DNA of 64,000 bases from positions 64,001-128,000 of the forward strand of contig CAXXWQ010000001.1 of assembly GCA_963674945.2 (NCBI GenBank). The letters are read 5' to 3'. The notes under the pieces are model-generated. The model was not told the origin of the DNA. It searched no databases and saw only the letters and a list, made by a program, of their open reading frames with translations. Numbering within the stretch: the stretch's first letter is position 1; each line of letters starts with the position of its first letter. This DNA comes from an uncultured Desulfosarcina sp. (lineage in GTDB: Bacteria; Desulfobacterota; Desulfobacteria; Desulfobacterales; Desulfosarcinaceae). Positions 1,381-62,513 of the stretch are shown piece after piece. The position numbers were made by a program, and so were the translations under genes.

Positions 1381-1498
1381 TGACGAAATTGTATAAACTA
1401 GAATTTCGGACGGCTTCGTAAAAAGCCCGAGATCAAGGATTGCGAGACCCGAGGGGTGAAGCGTAACGCAGATATCGGATTTTTTACGAAGCCGTCAA
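1381..1498 (+). repeat. Hairpin element family A, internally deleted copy
   Basis: IR gacggcttcgtaaaaa (1409) / tttttacgaagccgtc (1496); cgagatcaagg and aacgcagatatcgg boxes; homologous to copies at 2953, 49940, 62367. Confidence 0.85.
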
Positions 1499-1514
1499 TT
1501 ATCGGATAGACACA

Positions 1515-2900
1515 ATGAAACCGATCATTGCCATCATCGGCAGACCCAACGTGGGCAAATCCACCCTGTTCAACCGCATTACGCGCTCGAAGGATGCCAT
1601 CGTGGATGATCTTCCCGGTGTGACCCGGGACCGCAACTTCAAGGATGCAAAGTGGAACGATACGGTATTCACCCTGGTGGATACCGGCGGATTCGCAAAA
1701 GGGGATGACGATGCCTTTGCGCCCCACATCCGTCAGCAGGTGCAGCAGGCCATTCGTGATGCAGATGCGGTGGTTCTCCTGCTCGATGGCAAGGGGGGGA
1801 TTTCGCCTTTCGACGCCGACCTGGTCCAGACATTGCGGACGGTGGACAAACCCGTGTTTTTTCTGGTCAACAAGATCGACGGCCAGGGTCAGGAGAAGGA
1901 ACTTTTCGAATTTTATGGATTGGGTATCGACACCCTGTTTCCCGTATCGGCGGAGCATGGTTACGGGGTGTCCGATTTTATGGATGCGCTGACCGATGCG
2001 TTCCCCGATGCAATTTTGGAAGAAGAGCCATCGGATGCCATTCGTATCGCGGTGGTGGGAAAACCCAACGCGGGAAAATCGTCGCTGATCAACAACATTT
2101 TGGGGGAGGAGCGGCTTGTTGTCAGCGATGTGGCCGGTACGACACGGGACGCCATCGACACCTCTTTTTCCCGCAACGACCAAAACTATGTACTGGTGGA
2201 TACGGCCGGAATCCGTCGTAAGGGGAAGGTCTCCTTGCGCCTGGAAAAATTTTCCATCATCAAGGCACTTCGCAGCCTGGAACGCTGCGACGTGGCACTG
2301 ATCGTCATCGATGCCGAACAAGGTGTAACCGATCAGGATGTCCGCGTCGCCGGTTACGCCCATGACCGAGGGTGCGGTGCAATTTTCCTGATCAACAAAT
2401 GGGACCTGGTGGACAACCGTGACGGCAAAGCCCTCAAAAAAGTTACGGAAGATCTGCGAATGCAGGCAAAGTTTCTCAGCTTTGCTCCCGTGATCACCGT
2501 TTCGGCAAAAACCGGGTTTCGGGTAACACGTATCTTTCCCCTGGTGGATGAGGTGTATGCCCAGTACTGCGCCCGGATTACCACCGGCCCGTTGAACAAG
2601 ACCATGGAATCGGCGCTGGCACGCAACGAACCCTCCTTGCACAGGGGGACACGTCTGAAATTCTACTACGCCACCCAGGTCTCCACCCGCCCTCCAACCT
2701 TCGTCAGCTTCGTTAATTTTCCCGAAGGCGTCCACTTTTCCTACCGACGGTATCTGGTCAACCAGATCCGTGAGGCGTTCGGTCTGGACAAAACCCCCTT
2801 GCGGCTTTTCTTGCGCCAGCGTACCGGGAAAAATCCTGATTTCCTAAACAAGAAGCGTACGCCGGTCAAGCCGAAGCGAAAACGGCGTGAGAGAAGATAA
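1515..2900 (+). CDS. der: Ribosome biogenesis GTPase Der (EngA)
   Basis: Two GTPase domains: [16 protein letters not shown] and [18 protein letters not shown]-like C-terminus. Confidence 0.97.
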
Positions 2901-2952
2901 AGTGCTTCCGTCATTCGCCGTGGTGACCATTGGACCGGCAGTTGAGATGATA

Positions 2953-3106
2953 TTGACGGCTTCGGAAAAAGTCCGATATTGACGTTACGCTTCATCCTTC
3001 GTCACTGCGACGAATCCCAAATACGCCTCATTCCGCAGGATTCGCAATCCTTGATCTCGGGCTTTTTCCGAAGCCGTCTGAACAGCGACTTTTTACGAGT
3101 TCATCA
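2953..3106 (-). repeat. Hairpin element family A, full copy
   Basis: 17-bp perfect IR gacggcttcggaaaaag (2955) / ctttttccgaagccgtc (3078), plus extra end motif actttttacgagttcatc. Confidence 0.9.
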
Positions 3107-3162
3107 TTATTTTCCATGCGATCGACTTTTTTTTCGTCGGTCGCTGGTATATATAGGCGGGC

Positions 3163-4521
3163 ATGGACCTTTTCGACCACCATGCCCAATCTGCCACTGA
3201 CCATCAGCGCCCCCTTGCCGAGCGTATGCGCCCCCGGCGGCTTGCGGATGTGTTCGGACAGGCCGACGTCACCGGCCCGGGCAGCCTCATCCGTCATGCC
3301 ATCGAAAACGATCGCATTTTTTCCATGATCCTGTGGGGGCCACCGGGATGCGGAAAAACCACCCTGGCGCGGATCATTGCCGGTGAGACCGAGTCCCATT
3401 ACATCCATTTCTCGGCGGTGCTGGCAGGCGTCAAACAGATCCGCGAAGTCATCGCGGAAGCCAAAAAACAGCGCCAGTTTCAGCGCAAGCGGACCGTCCT
3501 GTTCGTAGACGAGATTCACCGATTCAACAAGGCTCAGCAGGACGCATTTCTCCATCATGTGGAATCCGGTCTGATCACCCTGATCGGTGCCACGACCGAG
3601 AATCCTTCTTTTGAGGTGATTTCACCGCTGCTCTCCCGCTGCCGGGTGATCGTCCTCAATCTTTTACACGACGAGGCACTGGGGCAGGTAATCGATCGGG
3701 CGCTGGCAGACGAGCAGTCAGGCCTCGGCACCCTGTCCCTGGGGTTGTCCCAACAGGCCCGCGACCATCTCATCAAGATTTCCGCAGGAGACGCCCGCAG
3801 TGCCCTCAACAGCCTGGAGGTCGCGGCGACCCTGGCCTTGGCCGAACCATCCGCGGAAGTTCAGAAAGGGCGGACCATCACCCTTGCCCAAGTAGAAAAA
3901 GCCCTTCAGAAAAAGGCGCTGTTGTATGACAAACACGGTGAGGAACATTTCAATCTCATTTCGGCCTTTCACAAGAGTCTGCGCGGCAGTGACCCGGATG
4001 CGGCGTTGTACTGGCTGGCCCGAATGATAGAGGCTGGCGAAAATGCCCTGTACGTGGCCCGCCGCATGGTTCGCTTTGCCTCCGAGGACGTTGGCAATGC
4101 CGATCCTTTTGCCCTGCGCATTGCCCTGGGGGCCATGGAGTCTTTCCGCTTTCTGGGACACCCGGAGGGGGACCTGGCCCTGGCCCAGGCCGCGGTCTAT
4201 CTGGCCACGGCACCCAAGAGCAACAGTGTCTACACGGCATGGAATGCGGCGCGAAAGGCCGTGCGGGAAAAGGGCGCGCTGCCGGTTCCCCTGCATATTC
4301 GCAATGCACCCACCTCCCTGATGCGGGAGGTCGGCTATGGAAAGAATTATCGGTATGCTCACGACTACGAAGATGGGGTTGTCGTGCAGGATTATTTTCC
4401 GGAAGCCATTTCGGGTTATCGGTTTTATTACCCGACCCAAAGGGGGTACGAAAAGATGATCGAGAAGCGATTGAGACGATGGCAGGAGGTCAAACAATCA
4501 TCCCGAAGTCAAAAATCGTGA
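3163..4521 (+). CDS. rarA: Replication-associated recombination protein A (RarA/MgsA AAA+ ATPase)
   Basis: PLAERMRP, WGPPGCGKTT, FVDEIHRFNKAQQD, GATTENPSF, SAFHKSLRGSDPDAALYW. Confidence 0.96.
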   Translation: MDLFDHHAQSATDHQRPLAERMRPRRLADVFGQADVTGPGSLIRHAIENDRIFSMILWGPPGCGKTTLARIIAGETESHYIHFSAVLAGVKQIREVIAEAKKQRQFQRKRTVLFVDEIHRFNKAQQDAFLHHVESGLITLIGATTENPSFEVISPLLSRCRVIVLNLLHDEALGQVIDRALADEQSGLGTLSLGLSQQARDHLIKISAGDARSALNSLEVAATLALAEPSAEVQKGRTITLAQVEKALQKKALLYDKHGEEHFNLISAFHKSLRGSDPDAALYWLARMIEAGENALYVARRMVRFASEDVGNADPFALRIALGAMESFRFLGHPEGDLALAQAAVYLATAPKSNSVYTAWNAARKAVREKGALPVPLHIRNAPTSLMREVGYGKNYRYAHDYEDGVVVQDYFPEAISGYRFYYPTQRGYEKMIEKRLRRWQEVKQSSRSQKS

Positions 4522-4706
4522 GGTGGAAGGGCGATTCTTCTTTGCTGGTTGTCTTGTTTGGCCGCCGACCATTCTATGATGTTCATCCGACGATTCTTCC
4601 TACAGCCACCTTGTCATGGCGCGATGCGTTGTTATTTTAGAAACTCGACATCCAAGCTGACTGCCTCCGGGTAATTGCCCGGCTTTGTAATACAAAGGAG
4701 TGTTCG

Positions 4707-6134
4707 TTGAAAAACGCCAACCCGTTTTGGAAATTCTTTTGTTCCGTCAAGTTGACCTTCGTACTGTTGCTTTCCCTGGCATTCACCTCCATCATCGGTA
4801 CGGTCATCCCGCAAAATGAAAGCCCGGACCTGTATCTTCGGGCATACGGCGCCTTCGGCTATCAGTTTCTCGATGCATTGGGCATTTTCGACATGTACCA
4901 TTCCTGGTGGTTCAAGGCACTCTTGCTCTTGTTGACCATCAACATCGTCATCTGTTCCATCGATCGGCTGCAGAGCAGCTGGAAAATCATCTTCAATCGT
5001 CATCCCAATGTGAATCCAAAGCGATTTACGAAGCATCCGAGTGCGCGAACGTGGACGAAAAAACAATCCGTCGAGGACTTGCTCACCGCTTATGAGCCCA
5101 TTCTCGCCAAACGATACGGTCATTGCCGGGTCAACCGGAACGGCGGCTCGGCTTTCGTCTACGGGGAAAAGGGGCGACTTTCCCGATTGGGCGTCTATAT
5201 CGTTCACGCAAGCGTGATATTTCTTCTCGTGGGCGGCCTGGTGGGGTCTTTTTTCGGGTTCGAGGGGTACGTCAACATCCCGGAAGGGGAGGCCACGGAC
5301 CTCATCCGTATCCGCAATACCGGACAGATCCATCGTCTGGACTTTACCATTCGCTGCGATGATTTCAGTCTGACCCTTTATGAAACCGGCGCGCCAAAGG
5401 AGTATCGCTCGGCCCTTTCCATCATCGAGGGGGGCGAAACGGTGAAACAGAAGGATATTATCGTCAATGACCCATTGCACCACAGGGGAATCAATATCTT
5501 CCAATCCAGTTATGGCGAGGTCCCGCCCAGCCAGATGACCCGCCAACAAACCGTGGCCTCCGAACCGTCGGATACGTACACTCTCGTTTTCACCAGCCGC
5601 GCCTCCCAGATGCAGTATACGAAGACGGCCAGGGTAGGTGTCCCCATGGATATTCCGGAAGGATTGGGTACATTTGTCATCCAATCGTTTGAAGAAGACG
5701 CAACATTTCGAGGAATGGATGTGGGGGCATCGCTGAAGGGCGTTCTCACCCAACAGGATGCGCCCCCGGTGGAAGTTCTGCTTCCGTTGCAGTTTGCCAA
5801 TTTCGATAAGATGCGCGGCGGCGATGTGATCATCAGCCTGAATGATCCATCCGGGCAGGATACCACACCCCCGCCGAAGAATGACAAACGCTACTACACC
5901 GGCCTTCAAGTGACCCGTGACCCCGGCGTGGGAATCGTGTACGCGGGGTTTGTGCTGATGATATTAGGTTGCTTCGTTACCTTTTACCTGTCTCATCAGC
6001 AGGTTTGCATCGTGATCGAACCGATTCAGAACAGCAGTCGCGTAACCCTTGCCGGCACGTCCAATCGAGGTAAACTGGCCATGAACAATACACTTGAAAA
6101 AATTTTTTCCGCCATGACCGAAAAAGGAGTGTAA
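4707..6134 (+). CDS. resB: Cytochrome c biogenesis protein ResB/Ccs1
   Basis: SIIGTVIPQ, YHSWWF, VHASVIFLLVG, VNDPL, GLQVTRDPG; adjacent to ccsB. Confidence 0.9.
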   Translation: MKNANPFWKFFCSVKLTFVLLLSLAFTSIIGTVIPQNESPDLYLRAYGAFGYQFLDALGIFDMYHSWWFKALLLLLTINIVICSIDRLQSSWKIIFNRHPNVNPKRFTKHPSARTWTKKQSVEDLLTAYEPILAKRYGHCRVNRNGGSAFVYGEKGRLSRLGVYIVHASVIFLLVGGLVGSFFGFEGYVNIPEGEATDLIRIRNTGQIHRLDFTIRCDDFSLTLYETGAPKEYRSALSIIEGGETVKQKDIIVNDPLHHRGINIFQSSYGEVPPSQMTRQQTVASEPSDTYTLVFTSRASQMQYTKTARVGVPMDIPEGLGTFVIQSFEEDATFRGMDVGASLKGVLTQQDAPPVEVLLPLQFANFDKMRGGDVIISLNDPSGQDTTPPPKNDKRYYTGLQVTRDPGVGIVYAGFVLMILGCFVTFYLSHQQVCIVIEPIQNSSRVTLAGTSNRGKLAMNNTLEKIFSAMTEKGV

Positions 6135-6136
6135 CC

Positions 6137-6982
6137 TTGCCCATGAGCAGTTCACAGCTTTTATCCATTTCGACCTTCGCCTTTGCGCTGGCCGCGTTTT
6201 TTTACGTGGCGGCATTAATTTTCAAAAGGTCGACGTTAACGCATCCGGCGCGTTGGACGGTGGTCGTCGCTGTCGCCGTGACCACGGCCGGGCTCGTTCT
6301 TCGCTGGATCGAATCCTATCAGATGGGGATCGGTCACGCACCCTTGTCCAACTTATACGAATCGCTGGTCTTTTTTGCCTGGACCGCGGGTGTGATTTAT
6401 CTGTATGTGGAGTTTGCGTACAAGAATGTCCTGATCGGCGCTTTTGTCACGCCCATCGCCTTTCTGGCCATGGCCTATGCCTCCTTGTCCCCCAATGTCA
6501 ATGATCGCATTCAGCCGCTGGTGCCGGCCCTTAAAAGCAACTGGCTGATCGCCCATGTGGTCACCTGTTTCTTCGGTTACGCCGCATTTGCCGTTGCGTT
6601 CGGAATGAGCATCATGTACCTGATCAAAGCCAGGGTACCGGAAAAAGAGGGAGGCATCATCGGGCATTTTCCCCGGTTGGATGTGCTCGATGAACTGACG
6701 CACCGGATGGTACTCTTTGGATTTCTCTTTCTCACCGTCGGTATCATTACCGGTTCGGTATGGGCCAATTCGGCTTGGGGCAGCTACTGGTCGTGGGATC
6801 CCAAGGAGACATGGTCCCTGATCAGCTGGTTTATCTATGCCTCCTTTCTTCATGCCCGTCTCATGCGGGGGTGGCAGGGAAAAAAGATCGCCTACCTTTC
6901 GCTCATCGGCTTTACGGCGGTGTTGTTTACTTACTTCGGCGTGAATCTGCTGCCTGGGCTTCACAGTTATGGAAAAGTATGA
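6137..6982 (+). CDS. ccsB: System II cytochrome c assembly protein CcsB/ResC (CcsA family)
   Basis: WWD domain WANSAWGSYWSWDPKETW, GHAPLSNLYES, GLHSY. Confidence 0.95.
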   Translation: MPMSSSQLLSISTFAFALAAFFYVAALIFKRSTLTHPARWTVVVAVAVTTAGLVLRWIESYQMGIGHAPLSNLYESLVFFAWTAGVIYLYVEFAYKNVLIGAFVTPIAFLAMAYASLSPNVNDRIQPLVPALKSNWLIAHVVTCFFGYAAFAVAFGMSIMYLIKARVPEKEGGIIGHFPRLDVLDELTHRMVLFGFLFLTVGIITGSVWANSAWGSYWSWDPKETWSLISWFIYASFLHARLMRGWQGKKIAYLSLIGFTAVLFTYFGVNLLPGLHSYGKV

Positions 6983-7129
6983 CGCATCTATACAGAGACG
7001 GCATCTTGTGGTTCATGCCGGCGTTCTCCCACTTTTTCAATCCTCAACGTAGTATCCCCTACGCCTGCGGTTGAAAAAGTGCTGCGGCCTTGGCCTGAAC
7101 CACAATCTACCATCTCTGTACAGATGCGT
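6982..7129 (-). repeat. Hairpin element family C
   Basis: Nested stems acgcatctatacagaga/tctctgtacagatgcgt, ttgtggttca/tgaaccacaa, actttttcaa/ttgaaaaagt; boxes cggcgtt 7019, ctcaacgta 7043, tacgcct 7060, gccttg 7087. Confidence 0.85.
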
Positions 7130-7154
7130 TTTGGTAGTGATGTAGTAAAAACAA

Positions 7155-7631: not shown

Positions 7632-7633
7632 CC

Positions 7634-8038: not shown

Positions 8039-8309
8039 TCACGTGACCTCGTTTTTCGTTGTCACACCCCAATACGGGGGGAAGCTGGTGAGAAATTGAC
8101 GAATGCAATTTCAACGATATTTGAAATACGTTCGTCGGGAATCATAATAGTGGAAAAAGTAAAGGATTTCAAATCCTAATTTTTTTATTTTATAAGGAGA
8201 TACCTGTTTCCGTGGCACAAAACCTGATTAAAACACTATAACCAATTGATAAAACATATATATTATGGTAATATTAGGGCACTAAACGCTCACTTCGGAG
8301 GTGAAATCA

Positions 8310-9671
8310 ATGCGGCGTCCGATCACCATAAAACACGAGATGGAAAAACTTGCCAGTCATAGCGGATTGATCAATATCGGCGCATTACTTGATGCGATAA
8401 ATTTCAGGTTCCGTTTCGAAAAGATCAACGGCGTCCATTGTGTAGACCCGAAAATTTCTCATGGTGACATTTTAGCTTCGATGATTGCTCTCATGAGTAT
8501 TGGTAAACCTGATTACGATGCGATCGAGATTTTTCGTGAGAAGCAAGAATTTTTCAACAAGGCCATTGGCAATCGTGCATGCCCGTCAAGCCCGACATTG
8601 CGTCAGCGAATCGATTTGATCGGCAACCAAGCCGATAAGCTGATTAAGGATGCAGGCGTTGATTTGGTTCGATCCTGCGCTCCGGCGATTTCACCCATCC
8701 AAACCAGTGCGGGTGATTTCCTTCCTTTGGATATGGATGTGAGTCCGTTTGACAACTCAAAGACTCAAAAGGAAGGCGTTTCCAGAACCTACAAAGGCAC
8801 GGATGGCTTCGCTCCGATCTTTGCCTACCTGGGCACCGAGGGGTATCTGGTGAATCTTGAGTTCAGAGAAGGAAAACAACACTGCCAGAAAAACACCCCC
8901 GAATTTATCAACGCCACCTTGGATTATGCCAGGCAAATTACCGATCAGCCTATTTTGATGAGGTTGGATTCAGGAAACGACAGTCAAGACAACTTTCCTG
9001 ACGATTCACGAAAGAATGTCCACTTTATCATCAAACGCAATTTGCGTAGAGAATCTGTTCAAAAGTGGGTTGATCTGGCAAAAAAATCCGGCAAGCAACA
9101 GCATTGCCGCTCAGGAAAATGTGTATGGATCGGAAAGACGATTGAAGACATCAACGGCAATCCATTGCGCTACCCAATCATCTTTGAGGTTACCGAAAGG
9201 CATACCAAAAAGGGCCAAGTACTGCTGTTCCCCGAGTATCAGATCGATACCTATTGGTGCAGCCTCGCACAGTTGCCACCGGATGAGGTGATTCGACTTT
9301 ATCACGATCACGGTACCAGCGAGCAGTTTCACTCCGAACTCAAATCCGACATGGGCCTGGAGCGCTTGCCGAGCGGTCATTTTTCCACCAATAGCTTGAT
9401 TCTTCATTTGGCGATGCTGACGTACAACATGCTACGGATTATCGGACAAATCAGCATCGAAGAGAGTGATCCGACTGAATTGCCCGGTATACGCCGGAAG
9501 AAAGTTACCCGGCGTCGAATCCGGACAGTCATGCAGGACTTGATGTATATGGCCGGTCGATTAGTAACCAGAAGTAGAAAATGGTACATATCCTTTGGCC
9601 AACTCAATCCATTTTCCAAACTGATGGATCGGATTTATCTTCGTCTGAATTTGCTTTCCGCTATGAAGTAG
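8310..9671 (+). CDS. IS1380-family DDE transposase (GTG 8301 is an alternative start)
   Basis: LDMDVSPFDNS, TYKGTDGFAPIFAY, RLDSGND, YHDHGTSEQFHSELK; GGAGG upstream of ATG 8310. Confidence 0.9.
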   Translation: MRRPITIKHEMEKLASHSGLINIGALLDAINFRFRFEKINGVHCVDPKISHGDILASMIALMSIGKPDYDAIEIFREKQEFFNKAIGNRACPSSPTLRQRIDLIGNQADKLIKDAGVDLVRSCAPAISPIQTSAGDFLPLDMDVSPFDNSKTQKEGVSRTYKGTDGFAPIFAYLGTEGYLVNLEFREGKQHCQKNTPEFINATLDYARQITDQPILMRLDSGNDSQDNFPDDSRKNVHFIIKRNLRRESVQKWVDLAKKSGKQQHCRSGKCVWIGKTIEDINGNPLRYPIIFEVTERHTKKGQVLLFPEYQIDTYWCSLAQLPPDEVIRLYHDHGTSEQFHSELKSDMGLERLPSGHFSTNSLILHLAMLTYNMLRIIGQISIEESDPTELPGIRRKKVTRRRIRTVMQDLMYMAGRLVTRSRKWYISFGQLNPFSKLMDRIYLRLNLLSAMK

Positions 9672-9678
9672 CTATAAT
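9651..9678 (+). promoter_or_regulatory. Candidate outward-facing sigma70 promoter inside the IS
   Basis: TTGCTT (9651-9656), 16 nt, TATAAT (9673-9678), pointing at the downstream gene. Confidence 0.45.
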
Positions 9679-9867
9679 TTTTAAAAGAACAATTTTACAG
9701 GCATTTGCTTGGTGATTTGCTATGGCTAAAGAATGAGAAACAGGAGCAAAATTCCTTCGAAATTTGAAAATAGTGAGAAAAATTATCAACAAATGATGGT
9801 GTGTGAGGCAATCGCCCCGCGCCAATCCTAACAGCAAAAATTAGGCCACTGATTCAGGGAGATATCA

Positions 9868-11499: not shown

Positions 11500-12011
11500 G
11501 GGCAGACGTTCCCATACCGGCCGGATGCGCATTGGCAGTGGGCCTTTGGTTTTACGAATCCGTCCGAACAGCGACTTTTTACGAGGTCATCCGTATGGAT
11601 AAGTTCCAGTATTTCCGTTTTGGTGTACAGGCGGCCCTGGCCGATGCCCGGGCATTGGCGGCGGATCGTTTGCCAACGGGCTTCACTGCGCAGGTTTATG
11701 AACCAGAACGGAAATTGTCTGCACTGATGGGGGCGGACCGGATGGATTCGGCAACCATTTTCGAAAAACAGGCAGTTTCCATCCCGGTCCTCTCTTATGG
11801 TGTGACCGCCTTCCCATGGTGCAAGGTACGTTTGGATGAAACGCCCTTCGGTGATGTTTATATAGGCGGCGATATCGGCGATCTCCCGTCGGTTCACGCG
11901 TACGATACCCGGCGCGCCGGTGCAGCAATTTCCGCATCGCCGGCACGCGAACCGGATGCCGTTATCGAAAAAATAGCTGTGACGGTCAAAGGGATTCATT
12001 GGCTTGTCCAC
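11496..12011 (-). CDS. YkgJ-family (CxxCxxCC) cysteine-cluster protein
   Basis: FACRRCGNCC, CLFF, CRIHPVRPHQCRQFPFW, CPGIG. Confidence 0.9.
   Translation of the reverse strand: MDKPMNPFDRHSYFFDNGIRFACRRCGNCCTGAPGIVRVNRREIADIAAYINITEGRFIQTYLAPWEGGHTIREDRDGNCLFFENGCRIHPVRPHQCRQFPFWFINLRSEARWQTIRRQCPGIGQGRLYTKTEILELIHTDDLVKSRCSDGFVKPKAHCQCASGRYGNVCP
11548..11592 (-). repeat. Left end of family A element inside the 3' end of the YkgJ gene
   Basis: Minus strand gatgacctcgtaaaaagtcgctgttcggacggattcgtaaaa matches the minus strand of 3062-3105. Confidence 0.8.
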
Positions 12012-12013
12012 AG

Positions 12014-14583: not shown

Positions 14584-15942
14584 ATGATGGCTGGAAAATA
14601 CCATATCCTGGTCGTTGACGATGATGGGGCCCACCGGACCATGCTCCATACACTGGTAGAGGGATGGGGATACGATATCGCGGAAGCCGATGACGGTGAG
14701 ACGGCCGTTGCCGTCGTCGGGCAAAAGCCCATCGACCTCGTGCTCATGGACATCCGGATGGTTCGGCTTTCGGGAATTCAGGCGCTGGAGCAGATCCGGG
14801 CCATCAACCCATCCATTCCCGTGGTGCTGATGACGGCATACGCATCCATCGAAATGGCCGTGGACGCTCTGAAAAAAGGTGCCTACGACTATCTGACCAA
14901 GCCTCTGGATTTCGAAAAGCTGCGGCTGACCCTGGACCGGGCATTGGAGCATTTTCGTCTCAGGAGGGAAAACCGGGAACTCAAGCGGCGGCTGGCAGAC
15001 GGTTTTCATGCGCCTCGGATTATCGGCAACAGCCCGGCAATGGTCCGTCTGCTGGAAACCGTGGCCCAGGTCGCCCCTTCCGAGGCCACGGTGATGATTA
15101 CCGGTGAATCGGGAACGGGAAAGGAACTGGTGGCGGCATCCATCCACCATAACAGCCCGCGCAGGAAGGGGCCTTTCGTAAAGGTCAACTGCGCCGCCAT
15201 CACCGAGACACTCTTGGAGTCGGAACTCTTCGGCCATGAGAAAGGAGCGTTTACCGGTGCCGATCGACGCAAGGAGGGACGCTTCGTACAGGCGGACAAA
15301 GGAAGCCTCTTTCTGGACGAGGTGGGCGAAATGTCCATCTCCATGCAGGTGAAACTGCTGCGCGTGATACAGGAGCGGGAATTGACACGGGTTGGCGGCG
15401 ATCAGACGATCCGTGTGGATGTTCGCCTGATCACCGCCACAAACCAGGATCTGGCCCATATGGTCAGCCAGGGCACATTTCGGGAGGATCTGTACTATCG
15501 TTTGAATGTCGTCGAAGTAAAGACGCCGCCGCTGCGTAAGCGCAGGGAGGACATTCCTTTGCTGGCCGAACACTTTCTGACGCATTTTGCCGAAAAGAAT
15601 CGCAAGTCGGCAAGCCGCTTCTCCCCCCGCGCCATGGACCTGCTGATTCGTCATCCATGGCCGGGCAATGTCCGGGAACTGATGAATACCATCGAACGGG
15701 CGGTGGTGCTTTCCCGCGGCGATTGTCTGGTGGAGGAGGATTTTGCCTTCCTCTCCCCGGGGCAATGGAAAACCGACGATCCGGCAACCGTGGCCGATCT
15801 TTCATTGGCGGCCATCGAAGGGCAGGCCATCGTTCGAACACTGGAATCGACGGGCGGCAACAAGAGTGAAGCGGCAAGGCGGCTGGGCATTACCCGGAAA
15901 ACCCTTCGGGATAAGTTAAAGAAACTGGATCACTCCCCATAA
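14584..15942 (+). CDS. ZraR/NtrC-family sigma54-dependent response regulator
   Basis: Receiver, GESGTGKE, ESELFGHEKGAFTGA, WPGNVREL, Fis-type HTH. Confidence 0.95.
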   Translation: MMAGKYHILVVDDDGAHRTMLHTLVEGWGYDIAEADDGETAVAVVGQKPIDLVLMDIRMVRLSGIQALEQIRAINPSIPVVLMTAYASIEMAVDALKKGAYDYLTKPLDFEKLRLTLDRALEHFRLRRENRELKRRLADGFHAPRIIGNSPAMVRLLETVAQVAPSEATVMITGESGTGKELVAASIHHNSPRRKGPFVKVNCAAITETLLESELFGHEKGAFTGADRRKEGRFVQADKGSLFLDEVGEMSISMQVKLLRVIQERELTRVGGDQTIRVDVRLITATNQDLAHMVSQGTFREDLYYRLNVVEVKTPPLRKRREDIPLLAEHFLTHFAEKNRKSASRFSPRAMDLLIRHPWPGNVRELMNTIERAVVLSRGDCLVEEDFAFLSPGQWKTDDPATVADLSLAAIEGQAIVRTLESTGGNKSEAARRLGITRKTLRDKLKKLDHSP

Positions 15943-16013
15943 CGATTGCCTATCCAGAAATGGCCAATTCAATTGTCGCTTTGGCCTGGAAAAGCTTTTT
16001 ACGAAGCCGCCAA
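15940..16013. repeat. Chimeric remnant: family B outer end plus family A outer end
   Basis: taacgattgcctatccagaaatggccaatt (15940-15969) resembles 20641-20670; gctttttacgaagccgccaa (15994-16013) resembles the family A end. Confidence 0.7.
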
Positions 16014-21855: not shown

Positions 21856-21928
21856 TGATGATCTCGCAGAAAATCGCTGTTCGAACGGATTCGGAAAAAG
21901 CCCGAGATCAAGGATTTCGAATCCGTCA
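21856..21928 (+). repeat. Family A element, short internally deleted copy
   Basis: acggattcggaaaaagcccgagatcaagg...ttcgaatccgtca; its terminus supplies the yebC TGA. Confidence 0.8.
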
Positions 21929-24962: not shown

Positions 24963-24990
24963 TAAACAGTGCCAATCCAGAAATGGCCAA
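24963..24990. repeat. Fragment of family B outer end
   Basis: taaacagtgccaatccagaaatggccaa resembles 15940 and 20641. Confidence 0.5.
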
Positions 24991-26233: not shown

Positions 26234-26309
26234 GATCCCATCGTCTAGTGGTTTAGGACGCCGGCCTCTCACGCCGGTAACGCGGGTTCGAATCCCGCTG
26301 GGATCACCA
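26234..26309 (+). tRNA. tRNA-Glu (anticodon CTC)
   Basis: GATCCCA/TGGGATC acceptor stem, anticodon stem CCGGC/GCCGG with CT-CTC-AC loop, GGTTCGAATCC, encoded CCA. Confidence 0.97.
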
Positions 26310-26320
26310 TGAACAATATC

Positions 26321-26353
26321 AGGCACTTACATTGGATTGTGAGTGCCTTTTTT
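26321..26353 (+). terminator. Intrinsic terminator after the tRNA
   Basis: aggcacttaca / tgtgagtgcct stem followed by a T run. Confidence 0.8.
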
Positions 26354-26552
26354 ATTTGGTAAAAATTCAATACCCAACAGGGACATCGATCTGATGGTCA
26401 GGTCAAAGGTTCCGGTGGTTGTGGCGACTAAATCTGAGCCGTCGTTCGCACCTAATCTATTGTAGCGATGGGCATTGCGGCGTCGAAAGCTCGCTTGGGG
26501 GTAAGGAAATGGCCAATCGTAAAATTTGCTTGATTTTTTTTCGTTTCCACGT

Positions 26553-26586
26553 TTTATTTTAGGTTTAAAGCTAAAACTAAAATAAA
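26553..26586. promoter_or_regulatory. Inverted repeat upstream of the fic gene (candidate autoregulatory operator)
   Basis: tttattttag ... ctaaaataaa; similar third half-site near 26595. Confidence 0.45.
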
Positions 26587-26619
26587 TGCAAGTCTTATTT
26601 TAAGTTCGAGGCAGGCAGG

Positions 26620-27789
26620 ATGAAGAGAGAACTCCAAGGAAGATACGTGACAATATCGACGGCGGGTGAAAAAGCTCAGGCCTTCATACCTTCACCGCTG
26701 CCGCCGCTTCCACCCATCGACTGGAACCCGCAGATGCGTAGCAAGTTCGATCAGGCGATGCTGGCGCTCGGGCGGCTGGACAGCGTCGCGACCCTGCTGC
26801 CGGACACCTCGATGTTTCTCTACATGTACGTCCGAAAGGAGGCGGTGCTTTCCTCCATGATTGAGGGGACCCAGTCGTCATTGTCCGATCTGTTGCTGTT
26901 CGAGCTGGATCAGGAGCCGGGCGTGCCTTTGGATGACGTGCGGGAAGTCAGCAACTATGTCGCTGCTCTCGACCACGGTCTGCGATTGCTTGCGGAAGGG
27001 CTGCCGCTCTCGATGAGGTTGTTTCGGCGGATCCATGGCGTCCTGATGAGTAAGGGGCGGGGGAGCAATCAAAGCCCGGGCGAGTTCCGGCGCAGCCAGA
27101 ACTGGATCGGCGGAACCCGGCCAGGTAACGCGGCTTTTGTTCCACCTCCCGCCGAAGAGGTACCGGACTGCATGAGCAAGCTCGAGTTCTTCTTGCATGA
27201 TCAGCCTGAACCAACTCCGGTGCTGCTCAAGGCGGCGCTGGCTCATGTGCAGTTCGAGACCATCCACCCCTTTCTTGATGGTAACGGCCGTCTGGGGCGT
27301 CTGCTGATCACGCTGCTTTTGTGTGATCAAAACGTATTGAAGGTGCCAATGCTTTATCTTAGTCTCTATTTCAAGACGCACCGCCAGTTTTACTACAAGC
27401 TGCTCAACGACGTCCGCCTGACCGGCGACTGGGAAGCCTGGCTCGATTTCTTCGCCGAGGCAGTGATTGTCACTGCCACCCAGGCGGTGGAAGCCGCGCA
27501 GCAGATTCTCGACCTGTCGAACCGGGATCGTGACAAGATCAGCGGCCTGGGCCGGGCGGCGGCCTCCACCCTGAAGGTCCACCGGGTGCTAATGGAACAT
27601 CCCATCGCCACCTCGGGTTCACTGGTGGAAAAGACCGGTATCACCCCGGCGACGGTAAACAAGGCGCTCGGCCATCTGGAGCAGCTCGGCATCGTGAAGG
27701 AACTGACCGCCCAGAAGCGCAACCGTCTGTTCAGCTATGAGGGCTATATCGAGATCATGAATCGCGGCACGGAACTGCCGGACAGGTAG
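26620..27789 (+). CDS. Fic-family protein with N-terminal inhibitory motif and C-terminal HTH
   Basis: HPFLDGNGRLGR; SSMIEG = (S/T)xxxE(G/N). Confidence 0.93.
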   Translation: MKRELQGRYVTISTAGEKAQAFIPSPLPPLPPIDWNPQMRSKFDQAMLALGRLDSVATLLPDTSMFLYMYVRKEAVLSSMIEGTQSSLSDLLLFELDQEPGVPLDDVREVSNYVAALDHGLRLLAEGLPLSMRLFRRIHGVLMSKGRGSNQSPGEFRRSQNWIGGTRPGNAAFVPPPAEEVPDCMSKLEFFLHDQPEPTPVLLKAALAHVQFETIHPFLDGNGRLGRLLITLLLCDQNVLKVPMLYLSLYFKTHRQFYYKLLNDVRLTGDWEAWLDFFAEAVIVTATQAVEAAQQILDLSNRDRDKISGLGRAAASTLKVHRVLMEHPIATSGSLVEKTGITPATVNKALGHLEQLGIVKELTAQKRNRLFSYEGYIEIMNRGTELPDR

Positions 27790-28001
27790 ATGCATTCTAA
27801 TTGTATCCTGTTCAGATGGGCGGAATCCGGTTAGAATTTTTTACACAGGAACATGCGATCCTGACCGTCCATGACCCTCCAGCTTCGACGCCAAAAGTGG
27901 ACGTAAATCCGGACGTAAAATGTCATGATATTTATGCCTCTGGAGATCCTGTTTCATGCGTAAGTAGCTAAAATAATAGGTATAGTAGGGTGGTGGATTG
28001 C

Positions 28002-28046
28002 CCTCTCACGCCGGTAACGCGGGTTCGAATTCCGCTGGGATCACCA
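28002..28046 (+). repeat. Duplicated 3' part of tRNA-Glu (att-like site)
   Basis: Anticodon loop to CCA, one mismatch at 28031; 5' half absent. Confidence 0.9.
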
Positions 28047-28186
28047 ATAATTAAATCAGGCACTTACAAGCAATTGTTGGTGTGGGTTGACATACCATCT
28101 CCGTAGTGGTTCCGGTTGAAGGCAGGGGCAGGACAGCCGGAACTGGCTTTCCCGGAGCGAAGCTATCCCCGGAAGATCAAAGACAG

Positions 28187-29833: not shown

Positions 29834-30012
29834 ATGTCTCCTGATGTGTTTACAAGCCATCCCAAAAAAACCTTTGGACTCAATATCTTTGTTGGAGGCA
29901 AATTTTAAATCCTCAAAATACTTTAGTATGTCTGCGGTTTAAAATTTGCCGCCGCTGCAATCTTGAACCCAAATCCCTTTTTTGAGGCAGCTTGTAGCAC
30001 ATCAGGAGACAT
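29834..30012 (-). repeat. Hairpin element family D (~180-nt imperfect palindrome)
   Basis: 15-bp IR atgtctcctgatgtg / cacatcaggagacat; inner ggcaaattttaaa / tttaaaatttgcc; diverged boxes at 29887, 29912, 29927, 29954. Confidence 0.8.
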
Positions 30013-40520: not shown

Positions 40521-40549
40521 CGAACAGCGACTTTTTGCGAAGCCGTCAA
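40521..40549. repeat. Family A end fragment
   Basis: cgaacagcgactttttgcgaagccgtcaa. Confidence 0.55.
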
Positions 40550-49939: not shown

Positions 49940-50093
49940 TGATGAACTCGTAAAAAGTAGGATTTCGGGCGGTTTCGTAAAAAGTTCGAGATCAAGGCTT
50001 GCAAGTCCCGAGGAATGAGGCGTACATGTAGTACTCCGCAGTGACGAGGGGTGAAGCGTAACGCCGATATCGGACTTTTTACGAAATCGTCAA
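49940..50093 (+). repeat. Hairpin element family A, full copy
   Basis: Boxes caaggc 49993, aggcgta 50018, tactccgca 50032, aacgccg 50060; IR tttcgtaaaaagt / actttttacgaaa. Confidence 0.9.
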
Positions 50094-56400: not shown

Positions 56401-56584
56401 GTGTCGTGTTATGCGTTGACGGGAAATTGGCAAAAAATGAACTTTCGGCTCAACTTATTGGATATTCAACCGATAATCGAATTCAAACAGTGTTTTTTCT
56501 GAACCAATGTATTCTACCGAAGGCACCGGAAAGGCCATTATTAAAGGATTTTTTATTATAGTCATGGATAACATCTTTTAATTA

Positions 56585-56614
56585 TTGACAGAATTAATCG
56601 ATTAAGTTTATTCT
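56585..56614 (+). promoter_or_regulatory. Candidate sigma70 promoter for the IHF/HU genes
   Basis: TTGACA-N18-TATTCT. Confidence 0.55.
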
Positions 56615-56672
56615 TTCTTAAAATTACCGTCCTGACGACCCAATATACAAGATTACCGGGAGCGCCGAACAC

Positions 56673-56948
56673 ATGAACAAGCTCGAACTGATACAGGCAC
56701 TGAAAGAAACCAATGGCCTATCCAGATCAGAAGCGGAAGATGTCGTGAACCTGTTTTTCAATACAATATCAGATGCACTGGCCAAAGGAGATCGCGTCGA
56801 AATACGGGGCCTCTGTTCTATTTTCGTGAAGGAGTACGGGGCCTATACGGGACGCAATCCCAAAACGGGTGAGAAAGTGAAGATCAGACCGAAAAAACTT
56901 CCCTTTTTCAAGGCGGGCAAGGAACTGAAAGAAAGAGTCGACCGTTGA
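56673..56948 (+). CDS. Integration host factor beta-like protein
   Basis: GDRVEIRG, GRNPKTGE, PFFKAGKELKERV. Confidence 0.9.
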   Translation: MNKLELIQALKETNGLSRSEAEDVVNLFFNTISDALAKGDRVEIRGLCSIFVKEYGAYTGRNPKTGEKVKIRPKKLPFFKAGKELKERVDR

Positions 56949-57046
56949 AATTCGCCATGCTTTGTTTCGTACATCAGTGTTTCCGCCTCTGACAAGAGGC
57001 CATTCGAATAGTTGTCAACACCAACACAAATCAAGAAGGAGGCCAC

Positions 57047-57310
57047 ATGACCAAAGCTGAACTCATCGAGAAGATCGCAAAGGATGCCGACATCCCGAAA
57101 ACCACCGCAAAAGCAGCATTCGATTCTGCTCTCGATGGCATCAAGACAGGACTCAAGAAGAGGAATAGCAAGGTTACATTGGTCGGATTTGGAACCTTTC
57201 GAAACATTTATCGGAAAACCCGTATGGGCCACAATCCCCAGACTGGTGAGAAAATCAAAATCAAAGGTCGAAGCGTGGTGACGTTCAAGCCAAGCAAAAA
57301 CATTCCCTAG
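57047..57310 (+). CDS. HU-family DNA-binding protein, short C-terminus
   Basis: MTKAELI, VTLVGFGTF, GHNPQTGEKIKI; ends FKPSKNIP. Confidence 0.88.
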   Translation: MTKAELIEKIAKDADIPKTTAKAAFDSALDGIKTGLKKRNSKVTLVGFGTFRNIYRKTRMGHNPQTGEKIKIKGRSVVTFKPSKNIP

Positions 57311-57320
57311 TTTTTGATAT

Positions 57321-57368
57321 TTTGCCATTCAGAGTGATCCATGATCGTGGACCACTCTGAATGGCAAA
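57321..57368. terminator. Long hairpin between convergent units (possible bidirectional terminator)
   Basis: tttgccattcagagtg / cactctgaatggcaaa, 16-bp perfect stem. Confidence 0.7.
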
Positions 57369-57419
57369 CGCTTCAGGAATCTCGGAATCCGAAGCAGTCC
57401 CGTCGGTATTGATTTAAGA

Positions 57420-57804
57420 GATTGCTCTTCCCGCCTTCTTTTTTCATTTTGAGATAGCTTGCCCGGCTGTTTTCTTGCAGCTCCCCCGTCCGGTTACCGC
57501 CCGCAGCTCCCGGCTGGTCGTCATGTGCATTCCTTTCCCCATACTGCGATTGTAGGGCCTTGCCGCAAAGACGATTCACCAGGGTGGATTTGCCGGCATC
57601 GGAAGATCCGATCATGGTGATCGTCTCACCTGTTGACAGATATTCTTCCAGCGGGATCAACGTTATGGGATCCGGCCCAGAGACAAGGTGTACCGGGACG
57701 CCGAAGGCAACGGTTTCCAGCTGTGCCGAAAAATGGGATGTCCACCCCATCTGAAAAAGGTGCTGGTTGTTGCCGGTATATATCCTGTCATTATCTTGTT
57801 TGCG
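57420..57804 (-). pseudogene. rsgA: RsgA-family GTPase remnant
   Basis: ANKI, PVHLVS, GSSDAGKSTLVNRL, frameshifted GKGMHMTTSREL, RASYLKMKKE. Confidence 0.7.
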
Positions 57805-58695
57805 CTAAACAGTGGGACTCTCATCGCTGAGTGCTTCGAAACCGGAAACAATATCCAAGAGCTCGGCGGTGATGGCGGCCTGGCGTTGTTCCCGGAATTG
57901 GCCCGTAAGTTCGTCGAGGGTTTCCAGGATGTTTTTCTCGGCGGCCTGCATGGCCATGAGACGGGCTGCGTTCTCGCTGGCCAGGGACTGGGTGAACGCC
58001 CGGTAAAGGGAGATAAACAGATATTGCCGGAAGAGATGGGCAAACATCGTTTCCCGTGAGGCGCTCAACATGGGAAGGCAGCGTCCCGGCCAGGTTGCGC
58101 GCCTGTGTGCATCGGCCCAGGCTTCATCGAGTGGCAGAACCCGCTGGAACACCGGCGCGTATCCTCCCTGTGTGCCCAGCAGGTGGTGGCAGATGAAGAA
58201 GGCACCCATCTGTCTGGCCGACCACCACTTCTCGATTGCCAGGACCAATTCGTGAATTTTCCCCTTGATTGCATTCAGGCTTCCCGGGGTCGCGAAGTGG
58301 GCGTCATGGGCAGCTCCCGCATCTTCCAATATGCCGCGCACTTTTTCCCCCACACTCCAGTATCGCCACTTCCGTCCCTCGGTCGACGTTGTCTTTGCCA
58401 TCTGTGCGAGAGCAAATGGCCAGAGGGATTCATTGAACTGGCCGCACATGCCTTGATCGGATCCCACCACCATACAGACGTTCACATCGTTTCGGGGCCG
58501 CTGAAGCATGGGGCCCCCCATCCTGAGAAATACGGTCCAGCCCATGTCCACCACACGGCGGTATTGTTCCAGAGACGCCACCGCCCGCTCGAACTGACGG
58601 ATATTGACGGCGGCCAGGCTCTTCATGGTCTTGACCACGCTGAGCAGGTCATGGGCGGTCCGGATCCTGCGGCTCAATGTCTCCAGCGTCGGCAT
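57805..58695 (-). CDS. atpG: N-ATPase gamma subunit
   Basis: [40 protein letters not shown]. Confidence 0.93.
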
Positions 58696-60238
58696 GCGCC
58701 TCCTTGAACGGGCCGATGGCCGTTGTGATGAGTTGTGTCAACCGGTCCCACACCGGATCATCGTCGCCGGCTCCGGCCAGTGTGTTTTCGATGTCGGGGA
58801 TGTCGGTCGCCACCGCCTCGAGAATGGTCCGCTCGGCTTCTTCCATCCGTTCTTCGGGAAGGTCGTCCAGCAGCCCTCGCGAGACGGCGAACAGAATCGC
58901 GATCTGTTCACCGGCCGGCATGGTGAGCAGTTCCTGCTGCCTGAGCACCGCCCTTACCCGGCGGCCGTGCTCCAGGATTCGACGTGTGCGGTCATCCAGC
59001 CGGGTGCCGAAACGGGCAAAGGACTCCAACTCCTGAAACTGGGTGTAGGATAGGCGCAGGGCACCGGCAACCTGGCGATAGGCGGGCAACTGCGCCTTGC
59101 CGCCCACCCTGGAGACCGACTTGCCAACATCCACGGCCGGCAGGACCCCTTTCTGGAAGAGTTCCGGAGAGAGGTAGATCTGGCCGTCGGTAATGGAGAT
59201 CAGGTTGGTGGGAATGTAGGCGGAGATGTTCTGGGCTTCGGTTTCGGCAATGGGCAGCGCCGTGAGCGAGCCGCCGCCCAGTTCTTCCCGCAGATGGGTG
59301 GCGCGCTCCAGCAGCCGGGAGTGCACGTAGAAGATGTCGCCGGGAAAGGCCTCGCGTCCCGGAGGGCGCCGGAGCAGCAGGCTCAGCTGGCGGTAGGCCA
59401 CGGCGTGGCGGGTAAGATCGTCGTAAACGATGAGCACATCGCGTCCCGTTTCCATGAAATGCTCTCCGAGGGCGGTCGCCGCGTAGGGAGCGATATACTG
59501 AAGGCCGGGCGGGGCGTCGGCGTCCACCACGACCACGACGCTGTACTCCATGGCCCCGTTTCGCACCAGTGCATCCACGACTCTTGCCGTTCCCGCACTT
59601 CGCTGGCCGATGGCGCAGTAGATACACAGGACATCCTTGCCTTTCTGATTCACCATGGCATCCAGGGCCACCGCGGTCTTTCCCGTCTGTCGATCTCCCA
59701 GGATCAATTCCCGCTGGCCCCGGCCGATGGGGATCAGGGCGTCCACCACCTTGAGGCCGGTCTGGAGCGGACGCACCACCGGTGCCCGGTCCATGATTCG
59801 GGGGGCTTCGTGAAGCACGGTCCGATAGTCCTCCGCATCGAGACTGCCCCGTCCGTCGAGGGGGCGGCCCAAAGGGTCCACCATCCGACCGACCAGGCCG
59901 TCTCCCACGGGAATATCCAGCACGCGGCCGCTTCGGCGCACCTCGTCTCCGGCGCACACCGATTCGCTGGGACCGAAGAGGACGACCCCCACCCGGTCGG
60001 GCAGGATATCCAGCACCATTCCGGCGACATCGGTTCCCACCTTCACCTGCTCCTCGAACTGCACCTGCCCCAGGCCGTCGACCCAGGCGATTCCCTGACC
60101 CACCGACTGGACGTGGCCCACTTCCTGTGTCTTCAGTTTGGGTGAGAAGTGTTCCACCCCCTGTTCCACGGCACGGTCAACATCGGCCAGTACGTCGTTC
60201 AGCCCGCTCGCCTCCAGGTTGTGATGTTCCCGGTTCAT
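58649..60238 (-). CDS. atpA: N-ATPase alpha subunit
   Basis: [42 protein letters not shown]. Confidence 0.96.
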
Positions 60239-60990
60239 GAATTCACCCGCGCGTTGTCAAAGAGAGTTTCCATGATTTCGGCTTCCAGATCCTCAAGATA
60301 GTCGGCCAGGTGCCAGGCTGCCGTGCGGTCACCCACCACCAGTTGAATTCCTATCCCCAGTTCCGGGTGTGCTTCCAGCCGGATCGGGGCGGCCGTCGGG
60401 AACCATTTGGAAAGATGTTCCCGCAGCATGCGGTCATCCTCATCGTCCAGGGCAATTCCCGACTGAACGACGATCTCCCGGCTGGCGGCCTGGTGGCGCA
60501 GCGCATCTTTTTGGTCGGCCACTTTTTCCAGAAAGACACGGAGCACCTGCCGGTTCAGCCCCTGATCCGAAAGATCACGGAGGGTCTTCTCGCCGATGCG
60601 CATTACCTGTTGCGCCACCTGCCGCTTGAGCCGGTCGAGAAAAATCTGCCGGTCCCGGGACATGCTGGCCATCCAGGCTTTGCGAAGCGATTCCACCTCA
60701 TCCCGGGCCACTTCCATGGCGGTTTCACGCCATCGCGTCACCTCATCCCGGGCCTCGGCCATGAGTCCTTCCCGGGCCTGGGCAAGTGTGGCTTTTTCCC
60801 TTTCCAATGCGAGGGCACTGGTCTGCGCCTCCTGCTCGGCCTGCCGGGCCCGGCCCAGGGCTTCGGCCATTTTCTTCTCCCGCTTTTCCATGGCACCGCG
60901 GATCGGCTTGAAGAGAAAGCGGTTCAGCAGCCAGATCAGGATGAGAAAATTGATGATCTGCGCTACGACCGTGAACCAGTCGATCAGCAC
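60235..60990 (-). CDS. atpF: N-ATPase b subunit with delta-like extension
   Basis: [18 protein letters not shown]...RFLFKPI; 251 aa. Confidence 0.92.
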
Positions 60991-60993
60991 GGG

Positions 60994-61272
60994 TTATCCT
61001 CCGGTCGTCGAAAGAAAGTACTTCCAGAACGGATTGGCGAAAATCAGTATCATGGCCACCACGAAACAATAGATGGCCGTCGATTCCACCATGGCCATGC
61101 CCACGAACAGGGTTCGGGTGATGGTACTGGTCTCGTCCGGCTGCTGGGCGATTGATCCGAGTGCCTGGGCAAGGGCACGCCCCTCGCCAAGGGCCGGCCC
61201 GATGGCACCGATGGCCATGCAGACTCCCGCCGACAGAATTGATGCCAAAGCGACCCAACCGAGTGTGTCCAT
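60994..61272 (-). CDS. atpE: N-ATPase c subunit
   Basis: GAIGPALGEG, QQPD, ESTAIY. Confidence 0.95.
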   Translation of the reverse strand: MDTLGWVALASILSAGVCMAIGAIGPALGEGRALAQALGSIAQQPDETSTITRTLFVGMAMVESTAIYCFVVAMILIFANPFWKYFLSTTGG

Positions 61273-61310
61273 AGGATTCCCCCCCATATAATTGGCGATT
61301 TCGCGACAGG

Positions 61311-62051
61311 TCAAATACCTGTGGCCGCGTTTTCCCGTGCCGATATCGCGCCCGTCGGCGCCGCCGGCACTTCTTCCCGGGCCGGCGCGGTCACCTCCAT
61401 GCCGGCACTGATATAGACCGCCGCCAGGATGGCGAAGATGTATGCCTGCACCATCCCCGTCAACAGCCCCAACAGTTGCATGAGGACGGGAACGATCAGC
61501 GGCGCGATGATCAGTAAAATGGCACCGATCATGGTGCCGCTCATGACATTGCCGAACAGGCGCACGCAAAGGGCCAGGGTGCGGCTGAACTCGCCCAGAA
61601 TGTTGAACGGCAGCATGAAGGGTGTCGGCCGAAGATAATTGCCCACGTAACGTTTCGCGCCGATGGACCCGATGCCGTAAACGGGGACAGCGAAAAAGAC
61701 GCAAACGGCCAGTCCCGTCGTGGTGGACAAGGAGCCCGTGGGCGGCGCGAACCCGGGAACCACGGCCAACAGGTTGCATACGGCGATAAAGAGAAACAAG
61801 GTTCCCAAAAACGGCAGCAGGCCTCTGGGCCGGCGCGGCGAGATTTCGTCCAATTGCTTCTCAATGACGTGGACCACCACCTCGAGAACATGCTGCATCC
61901 GTGATATCCGGGCACCGGTTGTAAGGCGCCGGCTGACCAGCCAGGAGCCGGTGGTAAGAAGTGCCATCACGAACCAGGTGAACAAAATGGTGCTGTTGAC
62001 CTTCAGCAGGCCGAACTGCCACCAGATTTGATCGTCAGGGGTGAGTTGCAT
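61311..62051 (-). CDS. atpB: N-ATPase a subunit
   Basis: PPTGSLSTT, SRTLALCVRLFGN, QAYIFAILAAVYI. Confidence 0.94.
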   Translation of the reverse strand: MQLTPDDQIWWQFGLLKVNSTILFTWFVMALLTTGSWLVSRRLTTGARISRMQHVLEVVVHVIEKQLDEISPRRPRGLLPFLGTLFLFIAVCNLLAVVPGFAPPTGSLSTTTGLAVCVFFAVPVYGIGSIGAKRYVGNYLRPTPFMLPFNILGEFSRTLALCVRLFGNVMSGTMIGAILLIIAPLIVPVLMQLLGLLTGMVQAYIFAILAAVYISAGMEVTAPAREEVPAAPTGAISARENAATGI

Positions 62052-62337
62052 GAAGACAACCTTTGCTTTCGCGACCCAGTGTACGGGTCAGAACAATGCG
62101 GACCAGGAAGAATCCGGCCAGGGCAAAGAAAAACGTCGCCGGATCCTTTTGCAGTATGATCCAGAAGCCGGAAAGGACCGTCGTCAGGCGGGCGACGGCA
62201 CTGATCGCCAGCCGGCGCCCCGGCCGCCGTTTGCCGGGCACCGTCTTTACGGTCAGCCACAAACCGCCGAAATAGAACAGGCCTAAAAGAATGCCCCAGA
62301 AGAACGTCAGCATTATCAAAATGACATTCACATCCAT
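62035..62337 (-). CDS. atpR: N-ATPase accessory membrane protein AtpR
   Basis: GLFYFGGLWLTV; position between atpQ and atpB. Confidence 0.85.
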   Translation of the reverse strand: MDVNVILIMLTFFWGILLGLFYFGGLWLTVKTVPGKRRPGRRLAISAVARLTTVLSGFWIILQKDPATFFFALAGFFLVRIVLTRTLGRESKGCLHATHP

Positions 62338-62366
62338 TCGTCTAAGTTCCCCAAAAATGAATTACA

Positions 62367-62513
62367 GACGACTTCGTAAACCGTTCGAGATCAAGGCTTG
62401 CGAGTCCCGAGAATACCGCTATCGCGGGTGCCGTAGGCAGCGTACATAAAAGTACTCCGCAATGACGAGGGACGAAGCGTAACGCGGATATCGGACGGTT
62501 TACGAAGTCGTCA
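62367..62513 (+). repeat. Hairpin element family A inside the atp operon
   Basis: 18-bp perfect IR gacgacttcgtaaaccgt / acggtttacgaagtcgtc; caaggc and aacgcgg boxes; terminus overlaps the atpQ TGA. Confidence 0.9.

Follow-up and report, generated by a model that had tools for sequence, protein, structure and literature searches.

We consider it likely that the dispersed palindromes of an uncultured Desulfosarcina sp. are gene-less MITEs that carry the ends of three IS families and are probably moved in trans, and that their ERIC-type core acts as a single-stranded DNA fold aiding their spread. The movers would be an IS1182-like element for family A, an ISNCY element for families B and C, and an IS5 element for family D; judging from the sequences of the ends, these matching transposases very probably do the moving. 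The window, i.e., the whole stretch of 64,000 nt analysed, covers positions 64,001-128,000 of the forward strand of contig CAXXWQ010000001.1 (GCA_963674945.2). Its elements sit among ordinary genes, and the genome is of the sulfate-reducer type.

Seven long palindromes had been reported in the window by a first-pass annotation, and all of them were confirmed in place (Table 1). The four boxes ascribed to the full copies are exact in C, B and the A copy at 49940. The A copy at 1381-1498 lacks boxes 2 and 3, that at 62367 has a 21-nt insert at box 2, and box 1 or box 4 is altered in the A copy at 2953 and in D. The box spacings nearly match, as had been noted, with start-to-start distances of 26/15/26 (C), 25/14/26 (B) and 25/14/28 (A at 49940), the original figures being off by 1-2 nt. 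Three fragments attributed to family A do belong there, namely a left end (11550-11592), a deleted copy with both ends (21857-21927) and an end remnant (40521), while the fragment at 15994 has A-type ends and is part of a scaffold-free element. The two fragments attributed to family B (15940 and 24963) are end remnants only.

Table 1. Element copies and remnants in the window, with strand and model score.
Feature	Position	Strand	Score (bits)
Family A, internally deleted (boxes 2-3 lost), left outer end degenerate	1381..1498	+	38.7
Family A, full: IS1182-like left end, inner arm, four-box core, right end	2953..3106	-	54.1
Family C, starts at ccsB stop codon	6980..7129	-	93.2
Family A left-end remnant, outer and inner arm	11550..11592	-	
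B-type end remnant fused to right end of scaffold-free element with A-type ends	15936..16011	.	
Family B, full, directly behind lolA stop codon	20646..20789	-	98
Family A, internally deleted, both ends kept, 7-bp direct repeat each side	21857..21927	+	
B-type end remnant	24963..24990	.	
Family D, IS5-type ends, TA each side	29851..29995	-	70.9
Perfect 15-bp outer inverted repeat around D copy (host hairpin or older ends)	29834..30012	.	
Short A-type end remnant	40521..40548	.	
Family A, full; boxes at 49993, 50018, 50032, 50060	49941..50092	+	74
Family A without outer arm, 21-nt insert at box 2	62367..62512	+	

Read with box 1 first, the core has an outer stem followed by a short GGC/GCC helix set between AA and AAC bulges, then a variable stem of 15-17 bp and a loop of G(C/G)A over GA, and it is capped by an apical hairpin whose TA pairs are invariant. 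The box 2/box 3 loop is flipped in family A, where GA lies opposite GCA, whereas families B, C, D and E have GCA or GGA opposite GA. Families B and C have a common terminal arm in most genome copies. With the structure fitted to the same alignments in both counts, 83.7% of cells were paired in 23 chosen copies (61.1% after shuffling), 31 of 41 pairs having changed on both sides, and 82.3% were paired in 78 matches from outside the genome (54.3% after shuffling), 36 of 40 pairs having changed on both sides. These counts support the initial proposal that structure and loop letters are conserved while the stem sequence changes. The proposal of a folded strand was also borne out, as the strand with box 1 first was the better folder in 204 of 215 copies with RNA energies and in 203 of 215 with DNA energies, so that the preference is the same for both.

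Profile searches of the genome revealed 293 loci in six core families, and 227 of these are near full length (A, 123; B, 67; C, 16; D1, 6; D2, 8; E, 7), and the elements occupy 0.5% of the genome. Chance palindromes do not account for them. A strict four-box pattern gave 78 matches in the 7.08-Mb genome and one in a 3.33-Mb order-4 Markov copy, and a structure descriptor gave 40 matches in the genome, none on both strands, vs 0 in the reversed genome. A single model recovered all families (150 of 150 scored candidates in the genome).

The ends of the two full A copies agree with those of an IS1182-like IS at 18/18 and 16/18 positions (2953..3106) and at 18/18 and 17/18 (49941..50092). A metagenome scan found three complete 1.9-kb elements with A ends, which have the same left/right asymmetry as the A copies and code for a 580-residue IS1182-like transposase scoring below that family's cut-off. 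Among 65 genomes of the family, 16 contain the IS1182-like element with A ends, and one A copy adjoins such an element. An A-matching transposase was not found in the source genome, despite 122 full A copies. The outer left arm is present in 73 of these 122. Counted from this arm, 6-bp A..T duplications, equally readable as 4 bp with TG..CA ends, flank 17 of 67 MITEs (0.8 after shuffling) and 7-bp duplications flank 4 (0.1 after shuffling), while counting from the inner arm gave no signal. The IS1182-like element itself has exact duplications of 6 bp in 9 of 13 cases and of 7 bp in 3 of 13.

Unrelated cargo, including REP-like dimers, was also found between A-type ends in a scan whose design favoured such cases, and the source genome holds 111-121-bp core-free elements with these ends. 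None of the 37 core-free long palindromes with A-type ends scored with the core model, two matches there being separate elements. The core is thus not needed for A-type movement. These ends with other cargo speak against a strict need for the core. The antisense bias described below, an RNA-level signal, speaks against the reading of a DNA core. We had also considered family A as a MITE of an IS5 gene (locus L161), and withdrew this assignment because the stretch between those ends contains nested pieces of IS3, IS5 and IS66, and because A ends are missing from homologues of that IS5. A plasmid search with family A gave no match, and a search of the source genome for ORFs bounded by A or B arms, with at most two mismatches, found none.

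B ends agree with ISNCY ends at 14/18 and 16/18 positions, and both B and the ISNCY element have a 6-bp register of the TANNTA type. The 6-bp duplication was found in 5 of 46 B copies, compared with 0.3 after shuffling, and a 1.69-kb ISNCY element with B-type ends has exact duplications in 5 of 7 cases. The source genome contains one intact ISNCY copy of 1,685 bp, which is flanked by an exact duplication and contains an ORF scoring above the family cut-off. The C-ISNCY match rests on the family consensus, the window copy of C agreeing at only 11/18 positions. The TA target of B likely explains its frequent position behind a stop codon. A 927-bp IS5 type has ends similar to B but 3-bp flanks as against the 6-bp register of B; it was dropped, and ISNCY fits better. 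The ends of D match those of a 937-bp IS5 element, of which the source genome has two identical copies; the window copy of D agrees at 20/22 positions, and the flanking duplication of D is TA only (n=5), which is inseparable from the end sequence. For family E, the mover was judged by eye only. IS4, ISAzo13-like and IS630 elements were rejected as movers after their ends did not match. The statement that no cognate enzyme lies in the window holds, the candidates for B/C and D being elsewhere in the genome. The core model found no match inside the IS loci, and the core does not derive from the interiors of the matched ISs.

Outside the genome, 9 and 6 of 79 elements match two IS5-clan end types of the source genome, compared with 0 of 1,580 background pairs. 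Five transposase loci in two distant high-copy genomes had no matching ends, and the ten matches to a B end in viral contigs all lacked the partner end. A mover of the REP/RAYT type, one of the possibilities first raised, is not supported: the RAYT-like gene is not flanked by elements, no linked HUH gene was found, and the ends and duplications point to DDE transposases. The elements also differ from REP/REPIN hairpins moved by RAYT (20-40 bp, tagged) in being five times longer and in having DDE-type ends and duplications, although the one-strand hairpins with conserved unpaired letters described in an excerpt of PMC3733652 are alike.

Comparison with relatives revealed both filled and empty sites. 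The element at the ccsB site is present in 4 of 14 relatives, and 8 of 9 relatives have no element at the lolA site, the ninth holding a family A copy in the same orientation. The relatives are about 75% identical, so that junctions at orthologous sites are not exact. No element-skipping joint was seen in contigs of four runs among the joints listed (15 of 284). The terminal inverted repeats of A, B and D match ISs, A and B have the duplication of their partner type, the interior is non-coding and unrelated to the IS, and orthologous sites are filled or empty. In agreement with the original suggestion of a non-autonomous mobile element, with ends and duplications matching autonomous elements, these are type II MITEs by every testable feature, for which mobilisation in trans is predicted. 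Type II MITEs, as outlined in a section of PMC10969869, likewise have only their ends in common with the autonomous IS, are intergenic and have flanking duplications. However, the present elements keep the interior and vary the ends, and a passage of PMC3184786 states that the cores of different MITEs have no similarity. A core kept across phyla while the ends change is the reverse of the usual MITE pattern.

We then considered what keeps the core. Variants present in at most two copies occur at similar frequencies in boxes and in stems (A, 1.0-1.6%; B, 1.8-3.1%), suggesting that the core was probably selected during spread and not in resident copies; we hold its maintenance by selection on amplifying copies to be more probable than not. 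One-sided changes are balanced (G-T 14, A-C 20), as for neutral decay, while double changes number 12 where 3.7 would be expected, and every one of them is compensated. From this we infer that amplifying copies are under selection and that one arm of the hairpin is copied to the other. Whether the core acts as DNA, through a protein that would read the AA/AAC bulges and the G-A loops, is a proposal with about equal weight on either side; the folded single DNA strand of the core would then raise a copy's chance of spreading.

An unlikely alternative is that DDE transposases move the ends and the core functions at the RNA level, where host ribonucleases or RNA-binding proteins would recognise it, making insertions tolerable or regulatory. 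The presence of G-U and tandem G-A pairs is in keeping with RNA; according to passages in two reviews (PMC10969869, PMC2229807), transcripts with ERIC or Correia elements are acted on by RNase E and RNase III, and a Geobacter family is predicted as RNA in a supplementary legend of PMC2700814. In addition, the C copy at ccsB is retained, folded and compensated in four relatives at about 75% identity, which suits host-level selection. Orientation is biased relative to transcription, yet of 139 tandem gaps only 46 have the better-folding strand on the mRNA, i.e., this strand is mostly kept off mRNA, which disfavours the cis-acting mRNA structure that had been offered as another possibility. Split by crude gene calls and local skew, the antisense bias is 70 vs 22 for leading-strand genes and 24 vs 26 for lagging-strand genes (p 0.0014). 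The absence of the bias for lagging-strand genes points to a DNA-strand effect, and the even mutation of resident copies also argues against an RNA function. Convergent and divergent gaps gave a strand bias of 47 vs 37, which is not significant. On general knowledge, the orientation pattern fits a loss of strong hairpins from mRNA and from the lagging-strand template.

A pattern scan of GTDB yielded at least 120 stretches. Among the 80 matches listed, record titles place the core in Gamma- and Alphaproteobacteria, Bacteroidota, Nitrospirota, Planctomycetota, Acidobacteriota, Myxococcota and others. A box-4-like word, which was not in the search pattern, is present in 71 of 85 outside matches, and the core model gave 78 matches over 79 outside loci. 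Copy numbers in five distant genomes were at least 150, at least 78, 2, 1 and 0; a Devosia genome gave no model match among 150 scored. In one further phylum-level draw, 16 of 61 genomes matched, and 8 of 12 viewed passed the strict box pattern. In E. coli K-12 the core model found three copies (best 47 bits, E 9e-8) and one more between aceF and lpd. By eye, these are ERIC elements when compared with the consensus printed in PMC2759123.

All 24 matches to a 27-nt hairpin insert fall within elements; the insert occupies box 2 in B and D1, and D2 has a variant of it. Another insert is found at box 1 in 3 of 3 matches. These inserts suggest that cores were exchanged among end families, or that the boxes were cut. 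Under the reading that we prefer, movement by the IS transposases with a DNA core, new end types would likely be gained by exchange at the boxes together with arm-to-arm copying within the hairpin. The same small hairpins at boxes 1 and 2 are compatible with the core being an independently mobile hairpin, carried by a single-strand nuclease, that landed in IS-end pairs like REP pairs and then rode the transposase. The REP-like dimers and other cargo between A-type ends, the build of family A as a self-contained hairpin with an extra outer end (73/122), and the occurrence of the core across phyla with unrelated ends are in line with this. We nevertheless judge it quite improbable: no recurring gene was found among 253 ORFs beside 80 loci, nor among the genes that elements bracket in the source genome, the RAYT-like gene is not flanked, and the duplications are measured from the IS-type ends. 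It is very improbable that the core is a functionless descendant of one old MITE, kept by arm correction and gene conversion while its ends drifted to local transposases; the neutral decay of resident copies, the excess of compensated double changes and the same insert in different end families would agree with it, but bulges and mismatches would be lost under arm correction, whereas it is the unpaired letters that stay invariant, from E. coli to the Bacteroidota, Nitrospirota and Planctomycetota titles, while the paired stems turn over.

The expectation that the elements might already be catalogued was partly right. Their ends are IS ends and their core is that of ERIC and RPE-1; in an Rfam search of the window, only a tRNA scored, and no family reached its gathering threshold at the elements. 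The reverse-complemented consensus of ERIC (IRU, RU-1) in Table 1a of PMC2759123 has, by eye, box 1, the GA loop pair, the apical TA hairpin and box 4, and a one-sided orientation at gene 3' ends has been reported as important for ERIC. ERIC is 127 bp long, whereas the present elements measure 137-154 bp, have other ends and, in A and B, 6-bp duplications; TA stands at both ends in D only, and the present genome has several end families with identifiable movers. An ERIC query in plasmids returned no named transposase in the best 50 of 566 records. RPE1-domain loci (NCBIfam TIGR01045) were found in 6 of 401 Alphaproteobacteria, and the core model matches the RPE1 position in 7 of 9 loci, weakly (E 2e-4 to 0.08). 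The box 2/3 hairpin of RPE-1 is that of family E; its boxes 1 and 4 are diverged, and it is often in frame in genes, whereas only 3 of our 227 elements lie inside crude gene calls. Translated cores gave weak RPE5 matches in 3 of 38 cases, far below the cut-off of the RPE protein models. In the 107-bp Correia/NEMIS repeat (PMC2229807 supplement), box 1, box 4 and the apical hairpin look recognisable by eye; it differs in its shorter inner stem, altered box 3 and TA duplication. The elements are thus not members of ERIC, RPE or REP, and the core is shared with ERIC and RPE-1.

Passages in reviews treat ERIC, RPE and Correia as separate families. We found no paper that unites them, three primary papers and ISfinder lying outside the comparison. 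It is possible, although we lean against it, that a single ancient, pan-bacterial parasite of transposases underlies ERIC, RPE-1, Correia and thousands of unnamed repeats: a folded single-strand module, read by a conserved protein, that would aid the spread of whatever IS ends it is joined to and change host transposase by swapping ends at its boxes. How ERIC-type repeats move has been an open question since 1990, and an excerpt of a 2007 review states that there was no experimental support for a transposase moving ERIC. Here, three end types have named matching transposases, two of them in the same genome, so that mover and core can be tested separately. The conserved core implies an unrecognised protein-nucleic acid interaction, and would unite classic repeats that are listed as unrelated. 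New in this work are the assignment of movers to three end types, the link to RPE-1 and the test for neutral decay.

Twelve of the 19 supplements of PMC2700814 were searched without a match. The centre of family C was already listed in Geobacter in 2009, in the Fig. S1 legend of PMC2700814: the central palindrome of a 24-copy 'short RNA' family of Geobacter metallireducens is the reverse complement of the family C centre, although that legend describes the family as RNA and makes no link to ISs or ERIC.

In several relatives, family A copies occupy the rlmE-yebC and radA-mltB gaps (L274-L291), suggesting that the same two gaps have been struck repeatedly by family A insertions. The four-box element was also present in tandem arrays of 2 and 4 copies at loci L050 and L054, from Alistipes and Holophagae records. 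A doubled left arm like that of family A was found again in other lineages, namely at L066 (a Scalindua record), L377 and L380. At L503, the left end of the IS1182-like partner adjoins a family A copy, the two lying six bases apart. Within the window, a 7-base word forms a short tandem run upstream of the first family A copy, and one intergenic gap of the alternate (N-type) F1F0 ATPase operon is occupied by another copy.

The elements with A-type ends from the metagenome scan (L356-L432) cluster in length at about 112, 135, 153 and 164 bp, and many of them lie near 135 bp and contain paired REP-like hairpins. At L295, two A-type ends enclose nested pieces of IS3, IS5 and IS66. A RAYT-like Y1 transposase gene was identified at L247, and no flanking copies of four-box elements were found at this locus.

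The two arms of a perfect 15-bp inverted repeat flank the family D copy of the window, which lies in the loop between them. The window also carries an element of the IS1380 family, which occurs in this genome as 5 near-identical copies of 1,666 bp. Furthermore, a Fic-family gene has a tRNA gene on one side and an incomplete duplicate of the 3' part of this tRNA gene on the other, resembling the att sites that flank small integrated elements.

Coordinates of the features in the window and at the comparison loci
Feature	Locus	Genome	Coordinates
7-base tandem run	window		about 1320-1356
IS1380-family element	window		8200-9865
Fic-family gene region	window		26234-28082
Inverted repeat with family D copy	window		29834-30012
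ATPase operon	window		57805-63998
A-type ends with nested IS pieces	L295	G016	985-3355
IS1182-like left end and family A copy	L503	G007	3190-3380
RAYT-like gene	L247	G000	C3:1895756-1896818
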